A DNA stretch of 64,000 bases from Candidatus Poribacteria bacterium (lineage in GTDB: Bacteria; Poribacteria; WGA-4E; WGA-3G): NCBI GenBank assembly GCA_963665235.2, contig CAXXLX010000001.1, positions 3,968,001-4,032,000 of the forward strand, given 5' to 3'. The notes below the pieces were generated by a model that was not told where the DNA came from, searched no databases, and worked only from the letters and a program-made list of their open reading frames with translations. This document shows positions 6,869 to 58,776 of the stretch, piece by piece. The position numbers and the translations under genes are program-made. Within the stretch, counting starts at the first letter, position 1; every line of letters begins with the position of its first letter.

Positions 6869-7394
6869 ATATAGAGCAATTAGCGATTGGCGATTGGCAA
6901 TTAGCAAGAAATATAAGAAAGAGAACACTTCCTCTTCTCTTTGTTTCTTCCTCTTGCTATTGGTTTCCAATAGTTTCCATAAGTTTCCAATGGCCAGCGA
7001 AGCCATAGGTTTCCAACAGCTATTGTCGGATTGGACTTCGTTCAACCCGACGGACAAGGACAGCTAAGTAGCAACTTGAGTTAATATAGTTAGCTGATTA
7101 ACCCGCCTGCCCTCTTATCAGGGGGGAGCCGGGGCGTTTTCATCGGTAATTTCAAATTTCGGTAAAAGTCTTCAGTTCAGTACTGTAACGCTTGAAAACC
7201 GATTAAAGAAACAATTAATTGAATTTTATCAAGTATACGTCTTGGCGGAGGGTGTGTAAAGTTTTTGTACTATGATAGAGGGAAGGGTGGAAGCGTGAAT
7301 TTCGGGTGTGTTGTCTGAATCGCGGATTTATCGGATTTCGCGGATTTTAAGATGCGTAGCAATAGAAGGTTTGTGATTATGAGCTAGGGTGTTG

Positions 7395-7640
7395 TGTTTT
7401 CTATAAATATACCGCCCCGCTGGGGCTAGATTGTCTGGCACTCGTGCTTCTATAAACATACCGCCCCGCTGGGGCTAGATTGTGTTGTGTTGTTGTGTTT
7501 TCTATAAATATACCGCCCCGCTGGGGCTAGATTGTCTGGCACTCGTGCTTCTATAAACATACCGCCCCGCTGGGGCTAGATTGTGTTGTGTTGTTGTGTT
7601 TTCTATAAATATACCGCCCCGCTGGGGCTAGATTGTCTGG
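7395..7640 (-). repeat. Array of 5 REP-like X units (CTAGCCCCAGCGGGGCGGTATNTTTATAGAA), alternating ~49/52 bp period
   Basis: ccgccccgctggggctag at ~7412, 7461, 7513, 7562, 7614 with two alternating linkers. Confidence 0.9.
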
Positions 7641-7672
7641 CGTTCACATTAAACATGTCGCCCCGATACCGC

Positions 7673-8337
7673 TAGTCCCGTAGGGACGATATATTTATAG
7701 AAGCAGATGTTTCAACAACCCATAGTCCCGTAGGGACGATATATTTATAGAAGCAGATGTTTCAACAACCCATAGTCCCGTAGGGACGATAGATTTATAG
7801 AAGGCACATAGTCCCGTGACGATTCTTTATAAAGCATACCCATAGTCCCGTAGGGACGATATATTTATAGAAGCAGATGTTTCTACAACCCATAGTCCCG
7901 TAGGGACGATATCTTTATAGAAGCAGATGTTTCCATAACCCCTTCCCGTAGGGACGATATCTTTATAGAAGCAGATGTTTCCATACCCCTAGTCCCGTAG
8001 GGACGATATATTTATAGAAGCAGATGTTTCAACAACCCATAGTCCCGTAGGGACGATATATTTATAGAAGCAGATGTTTCAACAACCCATAGTCCCGTAG
8101 GGACGATATATTTATAGAAGCAGATGTTTCAACAACCCATAGTCCCGTAGGGACGATATATTTATAGAAGCAGATCAACAACCCATTTAGGAATTTCGAC
8201 AACCCCATAGTCCCGTAGGGACGATATATTTATAGAAGCAGATGTTTCAACAACCCATAGTCCCGTAGGGACGATATATTTATAGAAGCAGATGTTTCAA
8301 CAACCCATAGTCCCGTAGGGACGATATATTTATAGAG
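7673..8337 (+). repeat. Array of ~14 REP-like Y units (TAGTCCCGTAGGGACGATATATTTATAGAAGCAGATGTTTCAACAACCCA), ~50 bp period
   Basis: Direct tandem repeats, a few degenerate; hairpin GTCCC-GTA-GGGAC. Confidence 0.9.
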
Positions 8338-8414
8338 ATTAGTGAAAACGGACATTTATTTTCAAACTCACGTTTAAGTACAAAAATTTTACACACCCTA
8401 TACGTCAGTTATAT

Positions 8415-8444
8415 TTGACTTAATAAGGTGAACTTTGGTATAAT
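8415..8444 (+). promoter_or_regulatory. sigma70-like promoter upstream of the Rpn remnant
   Basis: TTGACT-18bp-TATAAT. Confidence 0.5.
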
Positions 8445-8506
8445 AAATTGCAATACACCAGACCAAACTTATTTGCTATTTGTAAAGGTGACAACTATGA
8501 AAAATA

Positions 8507-8914
8507 CAGTGGCGGCGTGCCATCACCTATATCAGTTTGCTGATTTTACATCGGCGACCGCATGAAGAACACGATGACTTGAATACATTGGTTGAAGATC
8601 AGATACGAGATGAATCTCGTAAAAAGGAGGCAAGCGAAATGTCACAATCCATGGCGGAAAAGACCTTCCAACAAGGCGAAGCACGCGGTGAAAGACGCGG
8701 TGAGAAACGCGGTATAGAAATCGGTGAAAAACGCGGTGAGCTGCGTGCGAAACGCCAAGCTACGCTAACCTTACTCCAACTGCGTTTTGACAACGTTCCT
8801 GACACACTCATCCGAAAAATTAACGCAATGCGCAGCATGGCACGTCTCGACGCACTTTATGAAAAAGCCGCCCTTGCAACAACCCTCGAAGATATCGATT
8901 GGGAAAATCTCTAA
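8507..8914 (+). pseudogene. C-terminal remnant of an Rpn/YhgA-like (PD-(D/E)XK) protein; internal ORF 8639-8914
   Basis: QWRRAITYISLLILHRRP...MSQSMAEKTFQQGEARGERRGEKRG...LLQLRF; N-terminal nuclease missing; AAGGAGG 8 nt before ATG 8639. Confidence 0.65.
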
Positions 8915-16206: not shown

Positions 16207-16310
16207 TTTATTTGGCGATTAGCAATTGGCAAGATGTTGTGATTCTAAACAAGTTGCTGACGCGCGTCAGAGCCCTCTTCCTCTTGCTATTAGCCATTAG
16301 CCAACAGCCA

Positions 16311-18215
16311 TTAGCCAACAGCCATCGGTTTGAATTGACACCCCTCCACGAATATTTCGAAAAAATCGGGGGTGGTTTCAAGTTCAATGTGTTCAATGTT
16401 TTTGACAAATGCCTCAATATCTGCTCGCTTCTTTTTAGAAAGCAGGACAGCCTTCGCGCCGGCGACTGCTGCGTTTCCGATTTTGACAATACGCTCTTCG
16501 GGTACCGGTGCAAGAAAACCGATGTCAACGGCATCCTGGACGTTAACGTAGTTCGCGAAACCGCCCGCTAAAAAGAGTTTGGTTATAGCGTGTGGGGTGC
16601 AGCCGAAGTGTCGCAGCACAATATATTGTCCACAGTAGTTCGCCGCCTTTGCTTGTGCGAGATTGCTTGCGTCGTCACGTGAGAAGGTAATTCCGCGTTC
16701 AGGTAAAATCGGGAGTATCCGTTGTTTTTTATCTGCGAAAACCCCCTTCGGGTTCATCTGATTGTGTCGTCGCAGCTCAGCAAGCAGGGAGATAAGTCCC
16801 GACCCGCAGAATCCCTCTGCCTCTTTGTCGTCAATCGTTTCGTAATCAATTTCACCGTCGCGCCACTTGACCGCTTCAATAGCACCGGGGTAGGCAGGCA
16901 TACCGTATTCAATGCCCCCACCTTCAAAGGCTGGCCCGGCAGGGCAGGATGCAGCGACCATCCGCTCCGCATTGCCAACGACCACCTCCGTGTTTGTGCC
17001 GACATCCACCAACATAACCACTTCATCGTGTGATTGAATATCAATGGCGACTAGGTCCGCGGCGACATCCGCACCGACGTGGCTGGCAATCAACGGGAGG
17101 CTGTAAACCATCGCCTTCGGATTAGCACGGAGCCCTAAACGCCGCGTTTTTTCGGTCAGCGAAGTTGTTGAACGCTCCCCCTCGCGATATTCATGCTCAA
17201 TCATAGATTTATACGGTTTTTGGCCGATGCTTTGGACATCCTGTCTAAAGAGGATGTCACGCATTGTTGTATTCCCGGCGACAACGATTTCATAAATTTC
17301 CTGCCGGACGAAGCCGTGTCGGTCGCACATTGCCATGATTTCGCTGTTGAGTGCCGCAATAAGGGATTTACGTAGCTCCCCCTCAAATTCGCCATCATAG
17401 GAGATGCGGTGCATGATGTCGCTTCCGCCGAAACGTTGGGGGTTTTCAAAAGCACTGACCGAAACGGTCTCCCCGTTCTCCAAATCCACGAGGTTCGCTA
17501 CGACGGTTGTTGTGCCGATATCGAGGGCGAGTCCGTAGATGTGCCCGCGGAATCGGTCGATGGGTTCGTTATTGTAGTAGACGACTCCATCGCGGTGTTC
17601 GACCAGCGGTGCAAGGGAAGCGGTTGCATCATCTGTACTTGTGCCGACATGTGTTAAGATGCGGGGTGTGCGCCGTAGCGGTGCAAATTCAATATCTGCG
17701 TCTATATCAAGCACAACGGCTTGGCAGGCGAGGCGATAGTTGTTGTCTTGCAGGAACGTTTCCGCCGCGTTGGGTGGCCGGAGGCTGTCCATTCCCTTCT
17801 TGATTTCAACGATACATTCGTGGCACTGCCCGGTTCGGAAACAGGAGGTCGGTACTTGCACAGCTAGGTCGTCAGCATAGTCGAACACAGTTTTTCCGGG
17901 GGTGAGTTGATACACCTTGCTATCGCATGTGATGGTGCCGTTTGCTGTTTTCTGGTGTTGTGCTGTTTCGTCAGGAGCGTCTATCTCCCATGCACTGCGA
18001 TAATCTAATTTATCGTCTCCGACACAGAGTCGTCCTGTGCCTTCATCAATTTTCTGCTGGTTTCGGCATCCGAATTTTGCTGTGCAGTGGTCAAACCGGT
18101 TTTTATAAGGGCAGCGGTAAGTCGCCTGTTCGTCAGCATGTACGACCAATTCTTCGAAGATTTGTGTAATTTTATTGAGCCGCTTTTCATATTCCGTTTT
18201 GTCTATCTTTTTCAT
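16311..18215 (-). CDS. ASKHA-family corrinoid reductive activase (RACo/RamA-like) with 2Fe-2S domain
   Basis: CFRTGQCHEC...RLACQ ferredoxin; DIGTTT, GNTTM, HVGAD, DVGTNTE, AGPAFEG, AGGFAN, IGNAA. Confidence 0.9.
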   Translation of the reverse strand: MKKIDKTEYEKRLNKITQIFEELVVHADEQATYRCPYKNRFDHCTAKFGCRNQQKIDEGTGRLCVGDDKLDYRSAWEIDAPDETAQHQKTANGTITCDSKVYQLTPGKTVFDYADDLAVQVPTSCFRTGQCHECIVEIKKGMDSLRPPNAAETFLQDNNYRLACQAVVLDIDADIEFAPLRRTPRILTHVGTSTDDATASLAPLVEHRDGVVYYNNEPIDRFRGHIYGLALDIGTTTVVANLVDLENGETVSVSAFENPQRFGGSDIMHRISYDGEFEGELRKSLIAALNSEIMAMCDRHGFVRQEIYEIVVAGNTTMRDILFRQDVQSIGQKPYKSMIEHEYREGERSTTSLTEKTRRLGLRANPKAMVYSLPLIASHVGADVAADLVAIDIQSHDEVVMLVDVGTNTEVVVGNAERMVAASCPAGPAFEGGGIEYGMPAYPGAIEAVKWRDGEIDYETIDDKEAEGFCGSGLISLLAELRRHNQMNPKGVFADKKQRILPILPERGITFSRDDASNLAQAKAANYCGQYIVLRHFGCTPHAITKLFLAGGFANYVNVQDAVDIGFLAPVPEERIVKIGNAAVAGAKAVLLSKKKRADIEAFVKNIEHIELETTPDFFEIFVEGCQFKPMAVG

Positions 18216-31589: not shown

Positions 31590-31816
31590 TATTGCCCCCT
31601 TTGGCTATTGGCTTCGCTGGCTTATGGCTGTTGGCTATTGGCAAGAGGAAAAGGGTTTTGACGCGCTTCAAAAAACTGTGCACCTTCACAGCGTCCCTTG
31701 CTAATTGCTATTGGCCATTCGCTAATTGCTATTTTGGCTATTGGCAAGAGGGCTCTGATGCGCGTCAGAGACCTTTTTAGAATCACAACATCTTGCTAAT
31801 TGCTAATTGCCAATTG

Positions 31817-32230
31817 CTAATTGCCAATCGCCATATACTCTTCTAGGATAAGCACCGCAGCAACCTGATCGATAATGTCTTTCTGCTTTTTAGAGTCTTT
31901 GTTGACCTTACGCAAAATGTCTTCCGCCTCCGCCGTCGTGAACCGCTCATCCGCGAATTCAACAGGGATATCCAGCCGCTGTGAAAGCCGAGCACCGAAT
32001 TTCTGTACACGCTTCGCCTGTGCACCGAGCGTGCCATCAAGTGAGACAGGTAACCCAATAACAATCCGTTCTACCTTATGGATAGACACCAAATCCCCAA
32101 TCACCATTATATCGCGTTGCCGATTCGTCCGGGTCAAAGTGCAGAGTGGATGTGCGCCAACGCCGAGCACATCAGTAATCGCCACGCCAATCCGAACATC
32201 ACCGACATCCAATCCGAGTAAAACTGCCAT
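31817..32230 (-). CDS. ruvX: Holliday junction resolvase-like RuvX/YqgF
   Basis: LGLDVGDVRIGVA, VIGLP, DERFTT, IDQVAAVLIL. Confidence 0.95.
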   Translation of the reverse strand: MAVLLGLDVGDVRIGVAITDVLGVGAHPLCTLTRTNRQRDIMVIGDLVSIHKVERIVIGLPVSLDGTLGAQAKRVQKFGARLSQRLDIPVEFADERFTTAEAEDILRKVNKDSKKQKDIIDQVAAVLILEEYMAIGN

Positions 32231-32337
32231 ATTCTGTCGATGCTCCTTTTTATGAAAAACCTTTTCCCGCTTATCTGATTTCTATACACTGTTAAAATTT
32301 TACACAAAAAATCTGGCAATGTCAAGACAAATATTAT

Positions 32338-33664
32338 GGGGTGTGTAAAATTTTTGTACTTAAACGTGAGTTTGAAAATAAATGTCCGTTTTCTCTATAA
32401 ATATATCGTCCCTACGGGACTAGGGGTTGGGGAAACATCTGCTTCTATAAATATATCGTCCCTACGGGACTAGGCGTATCGGGGCGACATGTTTAATGTG
32501 AACGCCAGACAAGCTAGCCCCAGCGGGGGGGTTGGGGAAACATCTGCTTCTATAAATATAGCGTCCCTACGGGACTAGGCGTATCGGGGCGACAGGTTTA
32601 ATGTGAACGCCAGACAAGCTAGCCCCAGCGGGGCGGTATCTTTATAGAAAACACAAAAACACAACACAAGCTAGCCCCAGCGGGGGGGTTGGGGAAACAT
32701 CTGCTTCTATAAATATATCGTCCCTACGGGACTAGGCGTATCGGGGCGACAGGTTTAATGTGAACGCCAGACAAGCTAGCCCCAGCGGGGCGGTATCTTT
32801 ATAGAATACACAAAAACACAACACAAGCTAGCCCCAGCGGGGGGGTTGGGGAAACATCTGCTTCTATAAATATATCGTCCCTACGGGACTAGGCGTATCG
32901 GGGCGACAGGTTTAATGTGAACGCCAGACAAGCTAGCCCCAGCGGGGCGGTATCTTTATAGAAACATCTGCTTCTATAAATATAGCGTCCCTAAGGCGTA
33001 TCGGGGCGACAGGTTTAATGTGAACAGACAAGCTAGCCCCAGCGGGGCGGTATCTAGCCCCAGCTAGGGGGGGTTGGGGAAACATCTGCTTCTATAAATA
33101 TATCGTCCCTACGGGACTAGGCGTATCGGGGCGACAGGTTTAATGTGAACGCCAGACAAGCTAGCCCCAGCGGGGCGGTATCTTTATAGAATACACAAAA
33201 ACACAACACAAGCTAGCCCCAGCGGGGCGGTATCTTTATAGAAGCACAAGTGCCAGACAAGCTAGCCCCAGCGGGGCGGTATCTTTATAGAAAACACAAA
33301 AACACAACACAAGCTAGCCCCAGCGGGGCGGTATCTTTATAGAAGCACAAGTGCCAGACAAGCTAGCCCCAGCGGGGCGGTATCTTTATAGAAAACACAA
33401 AAACACAACACAAGCTAGCCCCAGCGGGGCGGTATCTTTATAGAAGCACAAGTGCCAGACAAGCTAGCCCCAGCGGGGCGGTATCTTTATAGAAAACACA
33501 ACACCCTAGCTCATAATCACAAACCTTCTATTGCTACGCATCTTAAAATCCGCGAAATCCGATAAATCCGCGATTCAGACAACACCCCCGAAATTCACGC
33601 TTCCAATCCCCTTCCAATCTTCCATCCTTCCCTCTATCATAGTACAAAAACTTTACACACCCCC
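32338..33664. mobile_element. Family A TIR element, copy 2 (inverted relative to copy 1)
   Basis: Same TIRs and subterminal sequences as 7250-8398; internal array of composite X+Y units (~153 bp) followed by alternating X units. Confidence 0.8.
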
Positions 33665-34027
33665 AATTGCTAATGACGTTGATAAATTATACAGATTTTG
33701 CTATAATTTATCCATAAAAAAGTAATTCTAATCAAAAATTTTAAAATCTGATTGATAACAACATCTCGGCAATTCCGGTGATTATGGAAAGATTGGCACT
33801 TTTTGGCGTTGAACTTGCTAACGCTGAGTACGATAGCGTCTAATTTTTTACTATCTTTTTTAGCAGATAGCGTCTCTATTAAGATAGCAATTGGCAATTA
33901 GCAATTAGCAAGAAAAAGAAAACAAAGAGAAAGAGGTTTTTGACGCGCGTTAGAAACCTGCTTAGAATCTGAAACTCTTGCCAATAGCCAACAGCCAATA
34001 GCCAACAGCCAAATTAATACGGAGGAA

Positions 34028-38028: not shown

Positions 38029-39069
38029 ATGGCGAAACATAAATGTTTAATGATTGGTGGAAGCGGTATGGCTGGCGGTTGGATACACAACTTCAGAAAC
38101 AATTTCAGCGACCGCGTCGAAATTGTGGGGTTAGCAGATGTGAAAACAGATGTCCTTAAAAACCAAGGCGAGGCGTTAGGACTCAGTTCTTCACAACTTT
38201 TCACCGATTTTAACGAAGCGTGTGCAACGGTCAAAGCAGATTTTTGTGGTGTCGCAACCCCGCCGCAATTCCATAGTCCCGCCGCAGTTGCAGCGATGGA
38301 AAACGGCATGCCCGTTATCTGCGAAAAACCGATTGCCGACACGTTAGACGCTGCCAAAGCGATGGTACGCACATCACAGAAAACCGGATTGCCGTGTGCT
38401 ATCATCCAAAACTATCGCTACGCCAATAATAAACAGGAACTAGTCCGTATCCGTGAGGAAGGCAAATTAGGACGACTCCAACATATTGTCGGCAGATACG
38501 CCTGCGATTATCGGCGTTATCTATCGTGGGGTGTGGATTGGCGGCACGATATGGATTTCAGTCTGCTTTTTGAGGCATCAGTACATCACCTAGACATGCT
38601 CCGATTCCTCTCCGGCGGGGATTGTGAAACCTTGGTAGGATTCGGATGGAACCCCGAATGGTCCAGTTTTAAGCATTATTCCAGCGGATACTATTTGATG
38701 CGGATGGACAACAGTGTCCACGCCTCTTACGAGGGAAACAGTTCCGCAGCAGGCATCATCAATTGTTGGAATGGCGAACACTACCGCGCCGAATTTGAGG
38801 AAGGCACCGTCGAAATCGCAGGTGGAAACCAGATGACCATCCATCGCGTCGGCGGTGAAAAAGAGGTGTATGAGGCGCCCGGTATCCCATATTATGCCCA
38901 TCAACATCTGTTCGATGAATTTTTAAATTGGCTTGATGGCGGCAAACCTTCGGATACACGGATTGAAGACAACATCAAAAGTTTTGTTCTCGTCATCGCT
39001 GCGATGGAAACGTCGGTTGATGGACAACCGAAGCATATCGCGGACTACCTGAGTGACCTGTCAATTTAG
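38029..39069 (+). CDS. Gfo/Idh/MocA oxidoreductase
   Basis: VATPPQFH, CEKPIA, SVHHLD. Confidence 0.9.
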   Translation: MAKHKCLMIGGSGMAGGWIHNFRNNFSDRVEIVGLADVKTDVLKNQGEALGLSSSQLFTDFNEACATVKADFCGVATPPQFHSPAAVAAMENGMPVICEKPIADTLDAAKAMVRTSQKTGLPCAIIQNYRYANNKQELVRIREEGKLGRLQHIVGRYACDYRRYLSWGVDWRHDMDFSLLFEASVHHLDMLRFLSGGDCETLVGFGWNPEWSSFKHYSSGYYLMRMDNSVHASYEGNSSAAGIINCWNGEHYRAEFEEGTVEIAGGNQMTIHRVGGEKEVYEAPGIPYYAHQHLFDEFLNWLDGGKPSDTRIEDNIKSFVLVIAAMETSVDGQPKHIADYLSDLSI

Positions 39070-39196
39070 TAATTAGCAATTAGCGAATGGCGATTAGCAA
39101 TTAGCAAGAGGTTTGTGATTCTAAGAACATATCTGCTGCGCGTCAGAGTCCTCTTTCTCTTGCTAATGGTTTCCAATAGTCAATAACCAACAACCA

Positions 39197-47030: not shown

Positions 47031-47195
47031 CCATATTAGCGATTGGCAATTAGCGGTTAGCAATTAGCAAGAGGAAGAGGACACTGACGCGCGTTAGAGT
47101 TCGGACTGTAATCAGAAAATCTTGCCAATAGCCAATGGTTTCCAATAGCCATTAGCCAGCGAAGCATAATAGGATGTTATCCTTTTACTACAATA

Positions 47196-47786
47196 ACCTA
47201 AGTTGCCACATAGTAGCATAATCTTCCAGATTGTGCCATATTTGTGTGCAAATTGGAAGTGAACGGGACAAATATTAGCTAATTATCAGCATATTTTCAT
47301 TAAAGACGGTGTTTCCAGGTCTAAAAACTTATAATACCATTTTTATTAATTATTCTATCATTACCGGTTGTTGGAAATGAAACGGAGAACGGAAGACACA
47401 AACTGGAAGTTTATGCTACGATAAAGAACACAAACTGGAAGTTTATGCTACGATAAAGAACACAAACTGGAAGTTTATGCTACGATAAAGAACACAAACT
47501 GGAAGTTTATGCTACGATAAAGAACACAAACTGGAAGTTTATGCTACGATAAAGAACACAAACTGGAAGTTTATGCTACGATAAAGAACACAAACTGGAA
47601 GTTTATGCACGATAAAGAACACAAACTGGAAGTTTATGCTACGATAAAGAACACAAACTGGAAGTTTATGCTACGATAAAGAACACAAACTGGAAGTTTA
47701 TGCTACGATAAAGAACACAAACTGGAAGTTTATGCTACAATAAAGAGATATTTTCAATTAGAAATGGTATAAGTAGCAACTTGGGT
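47196..47786. mobile_element. Family B MITE, copy 2, carrying a nested family C element
   Basis: Near-identical to 37779-37930 once 47335-47772 is removed; 7-bp TSD TACAATA. Confidence 0.85.
47335..47769. mobile_element. Family C MITE, copy 1, with ~11 x 32-bp REP tandem
   Basis: TIRs TACCATTT / AAATGGTA; TAA TSD; unit CACAAACTGGAAGTTTATGCTACGATAAAGAA. Confidence 0.85.
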
Positions 47787-58540: not shown

Positions 58541-58776
58541 TACCATTTCTAATTGAAAATGTCTCTTTCTTGTAGCATAAACTTCCAGTTTGTGCGTTCT
58601 TGTAGCATAAACTTCCAGTTTGTGCGTTCTTGTAGCATAAACTTCCAGTTTGTGCGTTCTTGTAGCATAAACTTCCAGTTTGTGCGTTCTTGTAGCATAA
58701 ACTTCCAGTTTGTGTCTTCCGTTCTCCGTTTCATTTCTAACAACCGGTAATGATAGAATAATTAATAAAAATGGTA
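58541..58776. mobile_element. Family C MITE, copy 2 (inverted), with 5 x 30-bp REP tandem
   Basis: Same ends as 47335-47769; TAA on both sides; unit TGTAGCATAAACTTCCAGTTTGTGCGTTCT. Confidence 0.85.

Follow-up and report, generated by a model that had tools for sequence, protein, structure and literature searches.

Two non-coding elements bounded by terminal inverted repeats (TIRs) and filled with tandem arrays of hairpin units, termed X and Y, lie in a 64,000-nt stretch of the genome of a Candidatus Poribacteria bacterium (contig C1:3968001-4032000, referred to throughout as the window; the genome is 5.31 Mb in 4 contigs, with 48% G+C). They belong to a family of 14 copies, here called family A, whose ends are those of an autonomous insertion sequence (IS) of the ISKra4 type and whose cargo units also flank a low-copy Y1 HUH transposase gene, in this genome and in others. 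We consider it likely that the family combines a shell moved by a DDE transposase, a cargo of repeats cognate to the Y1 enzyme and a process of block duplication that reshapes the arrays. An earlier note, made from the letters of the window, had read the two elements as a two-tier system in which DDE-mobilized shells ferry arrays of repetitive extragenic palindromic (REP) sequences. Our results support this reading, with caveats on the class of the Y1 enzyme and on the order of the units that are weighed below.

Family A and its ISKra4-type shell

The features of the two window copies and of their flanks are as follows, in window coordinates.

7234-7241, no strand: possible offset target duplication TATACGTC, an 8-bp match to the right flank that is displaced 8 nt (TTGGCGGA, 7242-7249) from the left end
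7250-7270, plus strand: left TIR of copy 1, GGGTGTGTAAAGTTTTTGTAC, which matches either end of the ISKra4-group IS (C1:327050-328506) exactly
7271-7389, plus strand: left subterminal module of copy 1, in which element positions ~62-98 (AATCGCGGATTT... motif) correspond to a dispersed Poribacteria repeat
7390-7641, plus strand: X array of copy 1, five direct units with the core TTCTATAAAyATACCG-CCCC-GCT-GGGG-CTAG and two alternating linkers
7642-7672, plus strand: X-to-Y junction (GGCGTTCACATTAAACATGTCGCCCCGATACCGC), single in copy 1 and present about 5 times in copy 2
7673-8336, minus strand: Y array of copy 1, inverted units (12 intact, 2 degenerate) whose core is TTCTATAAATATATCG-TCCC-TAC-GGGA-CTA; 50-nt periods at 94-98%
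8337-8377, minus strand: right subterminal module of copy 1, which is the left end of a second MITE family (MITE, miniature inverted-repeat transposable element; TIR AACGTGAGyTTGA...); 3 nt from the ISKra4 TIR
8378-8398, minus strand: right TIR of copy 1, the complement of GGGTGTGTAAAGTTTTTGTAC with one G>A change; the A at position 12 marks family A
8415-8444, plus strand: sigma-70-type promoter TTGACT-18-TATAAT, 11/12 matches; its -35 box starts 16 nt past the end of copy 1
32297-32325, minus strand: promoter TTGACA-17-TAAAAT, 11/12 matches, directed outward from copy 2; its -35 box and the element end are 13 nt apart
32339-32359, plus strand: A-variant TIR of copy 2 (the right end of the family; this copy is inverted)
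32360-33501, minus strand: cargo of copy 2, comprising the second-MITE end module, 2.9 composite blocks of 157 nt (Y + junction + X + X) and X units that alternate over 3.5 x 101 nt
33502-33641, minus strand: left subterminal module of copy 2, 87% identical to that of copy 1, with an insertion of ~21 nt
33642-33662, minus strand: G-variant TIR of copy 2

Copy 1 (7250-8398, 1149 bp) occupies exactly the interval given in the earlier note, whereas copy 2 (32339-33662, 1324 bp), which is inverted relative to copy 1, is shorter than the interval 32338-33664 given there, which takes in 1-2 extra G/C nucleotides on each side. When copy 1 is compared with the reverse complement of copy 2, positions 1-37 are identical (100%), positions 39-392 are 95.8% identical and the other element ends match at 100% over 55 nt. 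The exact TIRs, the unit map and Tandem Repeats Finder together confirm that the two elements share their ends and differ in the organization of their tandem arrays. The X array of copy 1 (7390-7641) consists of 5.0 units of 49 nt, or equally of 2.5 repeats of 101 nt at 100%, the longer period arising because two linkers alternate. It is followed at 7666-8336 by inverted 50-nt units with super-periods of 168 and 317 nt, both internal block duplications (the former 1.9-fold at 98%). The unit map gives 5 X and 12 intact inverted Y units, and two degenerate Y units recognized by eye bring the latter to the ~14 opposed units originally described. The map of copy 2 shows an interleaved X/Y block and then a run of X units, which Tandem Repeats Finder resolves as 2.9 repeats of a 157-nt composite Y+junction+X block at 98% (32509-32964) and 3.5 repeats of 101 nt of alternating X units at 99% (33151-33501), again as first proposed. 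Neither copy encodes a protein, as the earlier note held: the interior of copy 1 contains no open reading frame (ORF) longer than 48 aa, and the longest ORF wholly inside copy 2 is 50 aa. A 64-aa ORF (33531-33725) begins inside copy 2 and extends 63 nt beyond its end.

All 14 family A copies in this genome are TIR pairs enclosing direct X units followed by inverted Y units. In 13 of them the units can be counted, giving numbers of X and Y of (8,23), (11,3), (5,10), (11,6), (3,1), (8,12), (9,10), (5,12), (11,2), (8,2), (1,2), (3,8) and (5,2); the fourteenth is copy 2 of the window, with its interleaved form. Thus no two arrays agree, in line with the claim that each copy is reshuffled independently, while the ends are identical or near-identical. 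Seventeen right ends are at least 97% identical over 47-69 nt, and 16 of these consist of the A-variant TIR and the same ~40-nt second-MITE module (the seventeenth, of 47 nt, stops within the module). Full-length matches to the left end occur in this genome alone (9, at 79-100%), and among 40 related genomes neither the left nor the right end of family A is found at full length. The left subterminal stretch rich in AATCGCGGATTT (window 7311-7347) has a distribution wider than that of family A, with partial matches to element positions ~50-108 in 29/40 relatives. Because the right ends are nearly identical and the full-length ends are without a match in the 40 relatives, family A appears to be lineage-specific and to have arisen once and recently, its arrays diverging much faster than its unique sequence.

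The 21-nt TIR is found at 272 ends in this genome when up to 3 mismatches are allowed (90 are exact), including 70 simple inward-facing pairs of 194-5655 bp, so that the paired copies extend well beyond the window. With up to 1 mismatch, 168 occurrences compare with 0 for the reversed control, and the corresponding numbers for the unit pattern are 383 and 0; the pattern seen in the window copies is therefore not due to chance. An autonomous IS with the same ends, as envisaged in the earlier note, lies at C1:327050-328506. It is 1457 bp long, has perfect 21-bp TIRs and contains a 460-aa ORF that scores 217.2 bits on NF033572, the NCBIfam ISKra4 model (cut-off 205), and has no match in Pfam. This is the only locus of an ISKra4-type transposase gene in the whole genome, and we infer that its product moves family A in trans.

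Two further observations bear on the relation of family A to the ISKra4 group. The first is target duplication. Perfect 9-bp direct repeats adjoin the ends of many TIR pairs, and an exact 9/9 partner lies nearby for 18/129 plus-strand ends. Perfect 9/9 duplications surround 6/14 family A copies and an abutting 8-bp repeat surrounds a seventh, which suggests that the array-bearing elements have transposed as units. Two short relatives, one with X units only (321 bp) and one with Y units only (477 bp), each have a 9/9 duplication as well. The second is promoter proximity. The sequence TTGAC occurs 9-18 nt outward of 63/272 ends, with a peak of 27 at an offset of 16, compared with 1.5% of random sites, and both window copies fit the pattern (16 nt from the -35 box for copy 1 and 13 nt for copy 2). 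Guerillot (2014, PMC3942029) describes ISKra4-group elements as having near-perfect inverted repeats and as inserting 13-17 bp from sigmaA promoters, on either side. Insertion of family A would accordingly be expected to produce a 9-bp target duplication 13-17 bp upstream of a sigma-70 -35 box.

We considered whether recombination between copies had swapped the flanks of some elements. This was rejected: the window copies have no partner flanks, and the only swapped pair, C1:4355397 and C2:849966, represents one insertion in a duplicated region because its flanks are reverse complements. One of these two copies contains 11 X units and the other 5 X units plus an inserted IS. The surrounding region, in which several elements are nested, exists in two versions of opposite orientation near contig ends (C1:4354083-4358586 and C2:849966-855474); its family A arrays differ and one version has an IS630-like insertion, and it may be either a real duplication or an assembly issue.

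Hairpin units, their carriers and the Y1 transposase gene

Counted at up to 3 mismatches in the core, this genome has 236 X and 394 Y units, or 630 units in 191 clusters; a relaxed pattern finds 645. The conserved core of ~31 nt consists of CTTCTATAAAyATAyCG, a hairpin (5-bp stem, 3-nt loop) and CTA, and is joined to the next by a poorly conserved linker of ~20 nt. Base pairing is maintained across sequence variants: at the variable stem position 378 units have T-A and 258 have C-G, which makes 636/645 paired and 9 mispaired, and the inner stem pair covaries (CCC/GGG in 560 units, CCA/TGG in 55), all of these being within-genome counts inflated by copying. Arrays contain from 1 to 31 units with a period of 49-53 nt, and 401 of the 419 pairs of neighbouring units are direct, the other 18 being inverted. 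In arrays outside the shells, the linkers are the same within an array and different between arrays, and many linkers, read by eye, follow a loose AAGAG...GGGGC-GGAAAC-like pattern. Y units read CGTC, with GTC lying within the stem, and X units read CGCC; neither shows a clear unpaired GTAG or CGTC tag. Rfam gives no family for window positions 6900-8700 at E<=1, and a CRISPR array is ruled out by 'spacers' that are identical within an array. The noise in the GC skew is such that neither origin nor terminus can be placed as a reference for a strand bias of the units.

A variant of the Y hairpin has an insert of ~30 nt in its loop, in the form ...CGTCC[TTGAGGAGCGGGCTG..GCCCGAATACTG]GGACTA, and the insert contains a small hairpin of its own. 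Such hairpins are found at L010:560-610, just 5' of the ATG of the Y1 gene described below, and at many right ends of the second MITE family, and could represent either a nested element or an extended-hairpin variant. In a related Poribacteria genome (L017:1380-1760), a small element, bounded by inverted ends of its own and showing a TA duplication, lies inside the loop of a Y-type hairpin beside an ISKra4-type end, a case of triple nesting.

The units are associated with a Y1 transposase gene. Pfam Y1_Tnp has 18 matches in this genome, and units lie within 400 nt at 4/15 loci. The intact gene of interest (C1:1178425-1178895) codes for a protein of 157 aa. Its ATG is immediately adjoined by an inverted unit with an expanded loop, and the units past its stop codon are direct. 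At a decayed paralogue, 22 units lie towards the ATG and two towards the stop, the two sets mutually inverted. Orthologues with 62-73% identity are present in 23/41 genomes at 1-3 copies each, and 13/14 of the relatives' loci examined show the same flanking. When sites are picked solely by CTATANA plus 6 nt, a perfect 5-bp stem follows in 53/93 cases, compared with 0/93 for a slid control, and six stem sequences are represented, each with its exact complement, the stems covarying from one lineage to another. The same link is evident from gene content. The unit pattern occurs in 17/41 genomes, the richest having 383 (this genome), 318 and 60, with reversed controls at zero; the gene is present in 7/7 relatives with at least 5 units, and all 18 relatives that lack it have at most 2. 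Only 4 flank pairs match in synteny across genomes, too little to argue for vertical descent of the gene.

The association extends beyond Poribacteria. A public scan of one genome per species yielded 464 protein relatives, and flanks were analyzed for the best 80 of these, one of which was dropped for its short flank. These best 80 comprise Candidatus Poribacteria metagenome-assembled genomes (MAGs) and others at 60-68% identity that are mostly Flavobacterium, together with other Bacteroidota, one MAG each of Acidobacteria and Brocadiaceae, and a few whose only label is uncultured; the organism guessed in the earlier note is thereby borne out. Units that are inverted upstream and direct downstream, within 200 nt, occur at 19/30 Poribacteria loci and at 31/49 other loci, or 50/79 in all, and the opposite arrangement occurs at 0/79. 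Of two Flavobacterium genomes checked, one has 44 units, including a head-to-tail array of 7, and the other has two units in total, both of which flank the gene.

The 157-aa Y1 protein scores 80.4 bits on the NCBIfam IS200/IS605 model (cut-off 55) and is encoded at low copy number. Its motifs are NHIH, EWQ and YIKNQEKHH, and in an alignment with ISDra2 TnpA the NHIH motif corresponds to DHVH and the tyrosine of YIKNQ to that of YIESQ. Judged from these motifs only, it resembles the TnpAY1 proteins of subclass 1.2. The earlier note had suggested a search for a REP-associated tyrosine transposase (RAYT) gene flanked by X and Y units; a flanked Y1 HUH gene is indeed present, but it is IS200-like and falls below the cut-off of the RAYT model. 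We propose that X and Y are REP-like cognate flanking repeats of this low-copy member of the IS200 superfamily, and that the enzyme would recognize the hairpin together with the TATAAA box on single-stranded DNA.

Two other genes of related type were noted in this genome. Around a canonical RAYT gene (C1:831718-832197; 136 bits on NF047646) there are neither X nor Y units over a distance of 2 kb. The HuH motif of an IS200-type tnpA at C1:32721-33146 reads PVH instead of HVH, and five X-like units with a GAT loop (C1:33276-33501) lie on the start side of this gene at a distance of 208 nt; further copies of this kind of gene are without nearby units.

Family A is not the only carrier of the units. 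In a second MITE family, with the TIR ACGTGAGyTTGA, 195 ends are exact and the simple pairs, 150-1179 bp long, number 22 (for example C1:3123784-3124387 and C1:1833714-1834358); 8 of these pairs have target duplications of 8/8. Y-type units are present in 19 of the 22 pairs, with up to 10 per element, and the right subterminal module of family A (window 8337-8377) is an end of this second MITE. On a strict count, 381/630 units lie outside ISKra4-TIR pairs; when both MITE families are considered, however, 111/191 clusters, containing 464/630 units, have an end of one or the other at no more than 400 nt, compared with 6% for a control. Shell and cargo are separable layers. The ISKra4-type TIR is common in only two of the 41 genomes, this one (168) and one relative (61), and the relative with 318 units has just 7 TIRs.

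Array change and alternative explanations

The sequence of events that we propose begins with a one-time chimera in the order IS end, module with direct X units, junction, inverted Y units, second-MITE end and IS end with the G>A change. After each transposition, the arrays would gain, lose and reshuffle units, mainly as blocks between conserved cores are tandemly duplicated or deleted, whether by slippage during replication or by unequal recombination. The structure of the arrays favors block duplication over HUH transposition as the manner of change. Tandem Repeats Finder reports super-periods of 101, 157 and 168 nt at 98-100% identity, and the X-to-Y junction has 25 matches genome-wide, with 5 full and 1 partial in copy 2 of the window and 2-4 in each of three other copies. 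Since multi-unit blocks that include this unique junction have been duplicated, insertion of single units by the Y1 enzyme is not the source of the blocks. The enzyme could still act as a seeder of units or as a helper in array change.

An alternative is that the arrays grow by the action of the Y1 enzyme itself, units being excised as single-stranded DNA and reinserted beside an existing unit whose boundary serves as the target site. Such growth predicts head-to-tail arrays with a fixed period of ~50 nt, and the observed period is indeed tight, at 49-53 nt, despite linkers that differ between arrays, while 401/419 neighbouring pairs are direct. The gene is intact, with its NHIH motif and a tyrosine aligned to that of ISDra2 TnpA YIESQ, and arrays abut Y1 genes. 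However, the uniformity of linkers within an array and their difference between arrays are not expected from this process, the duplicated blocks with their unique junction are impossible by single-unit insertion, and the loosely shared linker pattern, seen by eye, means that a 50-nt period can be inherited. We therefore regard growth by Y1 action as unlikely, and retain block duplication between conserved cores as the preferred explanation.

It has also to be asked whether the arrays are maintained because they serve the host at promoters, be it as a platform on which proteins bind in phase, as an insulator or terminator that stops read-through, or by giving rise to small hairpin RNAs, with the transposon acting only as a vehicle. 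The insertions 13-17 bp upstream of -35 boxes, a core that is far better conserved than the linker and a period near five helical turns are all compatible with such a role, and promoter activity is described for BrickBuilt, a minisatellite-in-MITE (PMC4596501). The target preference published for ISKra4 elements nevertheless accounts for the proximity to promoters, the copy number per array is unconstrained (1 to 31 units), and Rfam gives no match. The window copies have no terminator-like site at their ends, and the units, besides flanking a transposase gene, are present in many contexts other than promoters. A host function seems to us less probable than growth by Y1 action.

Finally, differences between copies could be assembly artefacts in which tandem repeats have been collapsed or expanded. 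Tandem arrays are error-prone, and no contig from four public runs bridges an array, nor does any show the joint of an empty site. Yet the genome is assembled in 4 contigs and the arrays are no longer than 1.8 kb, and the 14 copies have distinct unique flanks and a coherent higher-order structure. Junctions between flank and element end are present in contigs of two studies, with 28-29 nt on the element side, just below the 31-nt rule for bridging. We consider this explanation highly improbable, and treat the array differences as probably real.

Several results weigh against the combined model of shell, Y1-cognate cargo and block duplication. (i) With regard to the enzyme, the Y1 protein fails the RAYT model NF047646 (31.7 bits, cut-off 80), and its nearest solved structure is ISDra2 TnpA (E = 4e-9), with no match to E. 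coli TnpAREP at E<=1. (ii) With regard to the units, the head-to-tail order of the 401/419 neighbour pairs is not that of REP families, in which head-to-tail dimers are absent or rare according to Di Nocera (2013, PMC3733652). Copying inflates the within-genome covariation counts, and the hairpin taken singly is weak, its DNA fold energies (-4.8 and -3.9 kcal/mol, z-scores -0.6 and -1.5) being not distinct from those of shuffled sequences. (iii) X units proper, with the GCT loop, flank the Y1 gene in relatives only and not in this genome. (iv) No end of either MITE family lies within 400 nt of 80/191 unit clusters. (v) Neither window copy has a clean abutting 9-bp duplication, nor does a partner flank exist elsewhere in the genome. 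(vi) The arrays are unbridged by the short Logan contigs, in which the flank-to-end junctions alone are supported.

Relation to known systems and further observations

The shell resembles ISKra4-group IS (p-MULT 4, Mutator-like DDE) as described in PMC3942029, in having an NF033572 partner, near-perfect inverted ends, 9-bp duplications around some of its copies and a location 13-17 bp upstream of -35 boxes. It differs from these IS and their derived MITEs in lacking a transposase and in being a chimera with the end of another MITE. Family A, MITE-like but 0.4-1.8 kb in length, is far above the usual length because its cargo consists of tandem arrays. The two window copies, non-coding and 1149 and 1324 bp long, lie beyond the strict MITE size of tens to a few hundred bp, and family members range from 321 to 1801 bp. 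In being TIR-bounded, non-coding, intergenic and variable in length around a tandem-array core, family A also resembles BrickBuilt of Porphyromonas gingivalis (Klein 2015, PMC4596501). BrickBuilt, however, has one 23-nt unit without spacers, and its abstract makes no link to a second transposase, whereas family A has two opposed arrays of 50-nt hairpins that would be cognate to a Y1 transposase. The Chunjie MITE of Geobacter was considered as a carrier of REP arrays and was not borne out; two reviews give 178-235 bp, 21-bp TIRs and 9-bp repeats, and describe no arrays.

The cargo shares with REP, BIME and REPIN sequences and their RAYT genes the use of short GC-rich hairpins with a conserved 5' extension in hundreds of copies, inverted flanking of a low-copy Y1 HUH gene, co-occurrence of gene and repeat, and lineage-specific stems. 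The differences are an IS200-like gene, head-to-tail arrays instead of inverted dimers, a 5-bp stem and the apparent absence of an unpaired GTAG tag. Work by Nunvar in 2010 and by Bertels and Rainey in 2011 is said to link REP and REPIN sequences with RAYT (TnpAREP) genes.

A closer counterpart of the enzyme is TnpAY1 subclass 1.2, which in the account of Quentin (2018, PMC6006769) is marked 'REP: no', is generally without terminal hairpins and is mostly cyanobacterial and from Bacteroidetes. The likeness includes the tyrosine motif (YIKNQEKHH, compared with the consensus YIKNQKEHH), a WQ motif, a length of ~150 aa, low copy number and relatives in Bacteroidota. In contrast to that account, hairpin units flank the gene at most loci here, the HUH motif is NHIH and not DH[IV]H, and Poribacteria lie outside the range published there. 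Our literature search, with supplements (e.g. those of Quentin 2018 and Guerillot 2014) outside its scope, found no prior report of this gene-repeat link or of the Poribacteria repeats. The parts of the system are known, namely promoter targeting by ISKra4 elements, a minisatellite within a MITE and the association of REP sequences with Y1 enzymes. The combination is new: a Y1 subclass published as repeat-less, head-to-tail units and two DDE MITE carriers.

A broader interpretation, which we offer as a tentative one falling somewhat short of an even chance, is that TnpAY1 subclass 1.2 has a conserved cognate unit of REP-like kind (a TATAAA box followed by 5-7 nt and a 5-bp hairpin) from Poribacteria to Flavobacterium, that this unit proliferates head to tail and that two unrelated MITE families of the DDE type, one of them promoter-targeting, have acquired it here. 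HUH-linked repeats would then be spread largely on DDE transposons, which would plant hypervariable arrays just upstream of genes.

These observations would connect a family of hairpin repeats with a Y1 transposase subclass thought to be repeat-less, and make recognition, cleavage and array growth directly testable; biochemical experiments are possible because the gene and its units occur together in cultivable Flavobacterium. They also provide a natural case of HUH-linked repeats borne by DDE MITEs, with 464/630 units near MITE ends. With a carrier whose insertions fall just upstream of promoters, the length of an array could influence gene expression. Arrays that change faster than point mutations accumulate would, for that reason, be useful strain markers and at the same time a hazard for the assembly of sponge-symbiont genomes.

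Other repeats are present in the window. Two spacer-less tandem arrays based on CACAAACTGGAAGTTTATGCTAC, at 47396-47746 (11 x 32 nt, 99%) and 58567-58714 (4.9 x 30 nt, 100%), are in opposite orientations, and the same motif occurs beside the decayed Y1 gene (L011:430-470) and beside several unit clusters. Intergenic runs of 7-nt repeats (TTGCTAA, TTGCCAA or ATTAGCC), often beside mobile elements, are found at 16289-16325, 31793-31833, 33885-33911, 33980-34012, 39066-39107 and 47035-47070.

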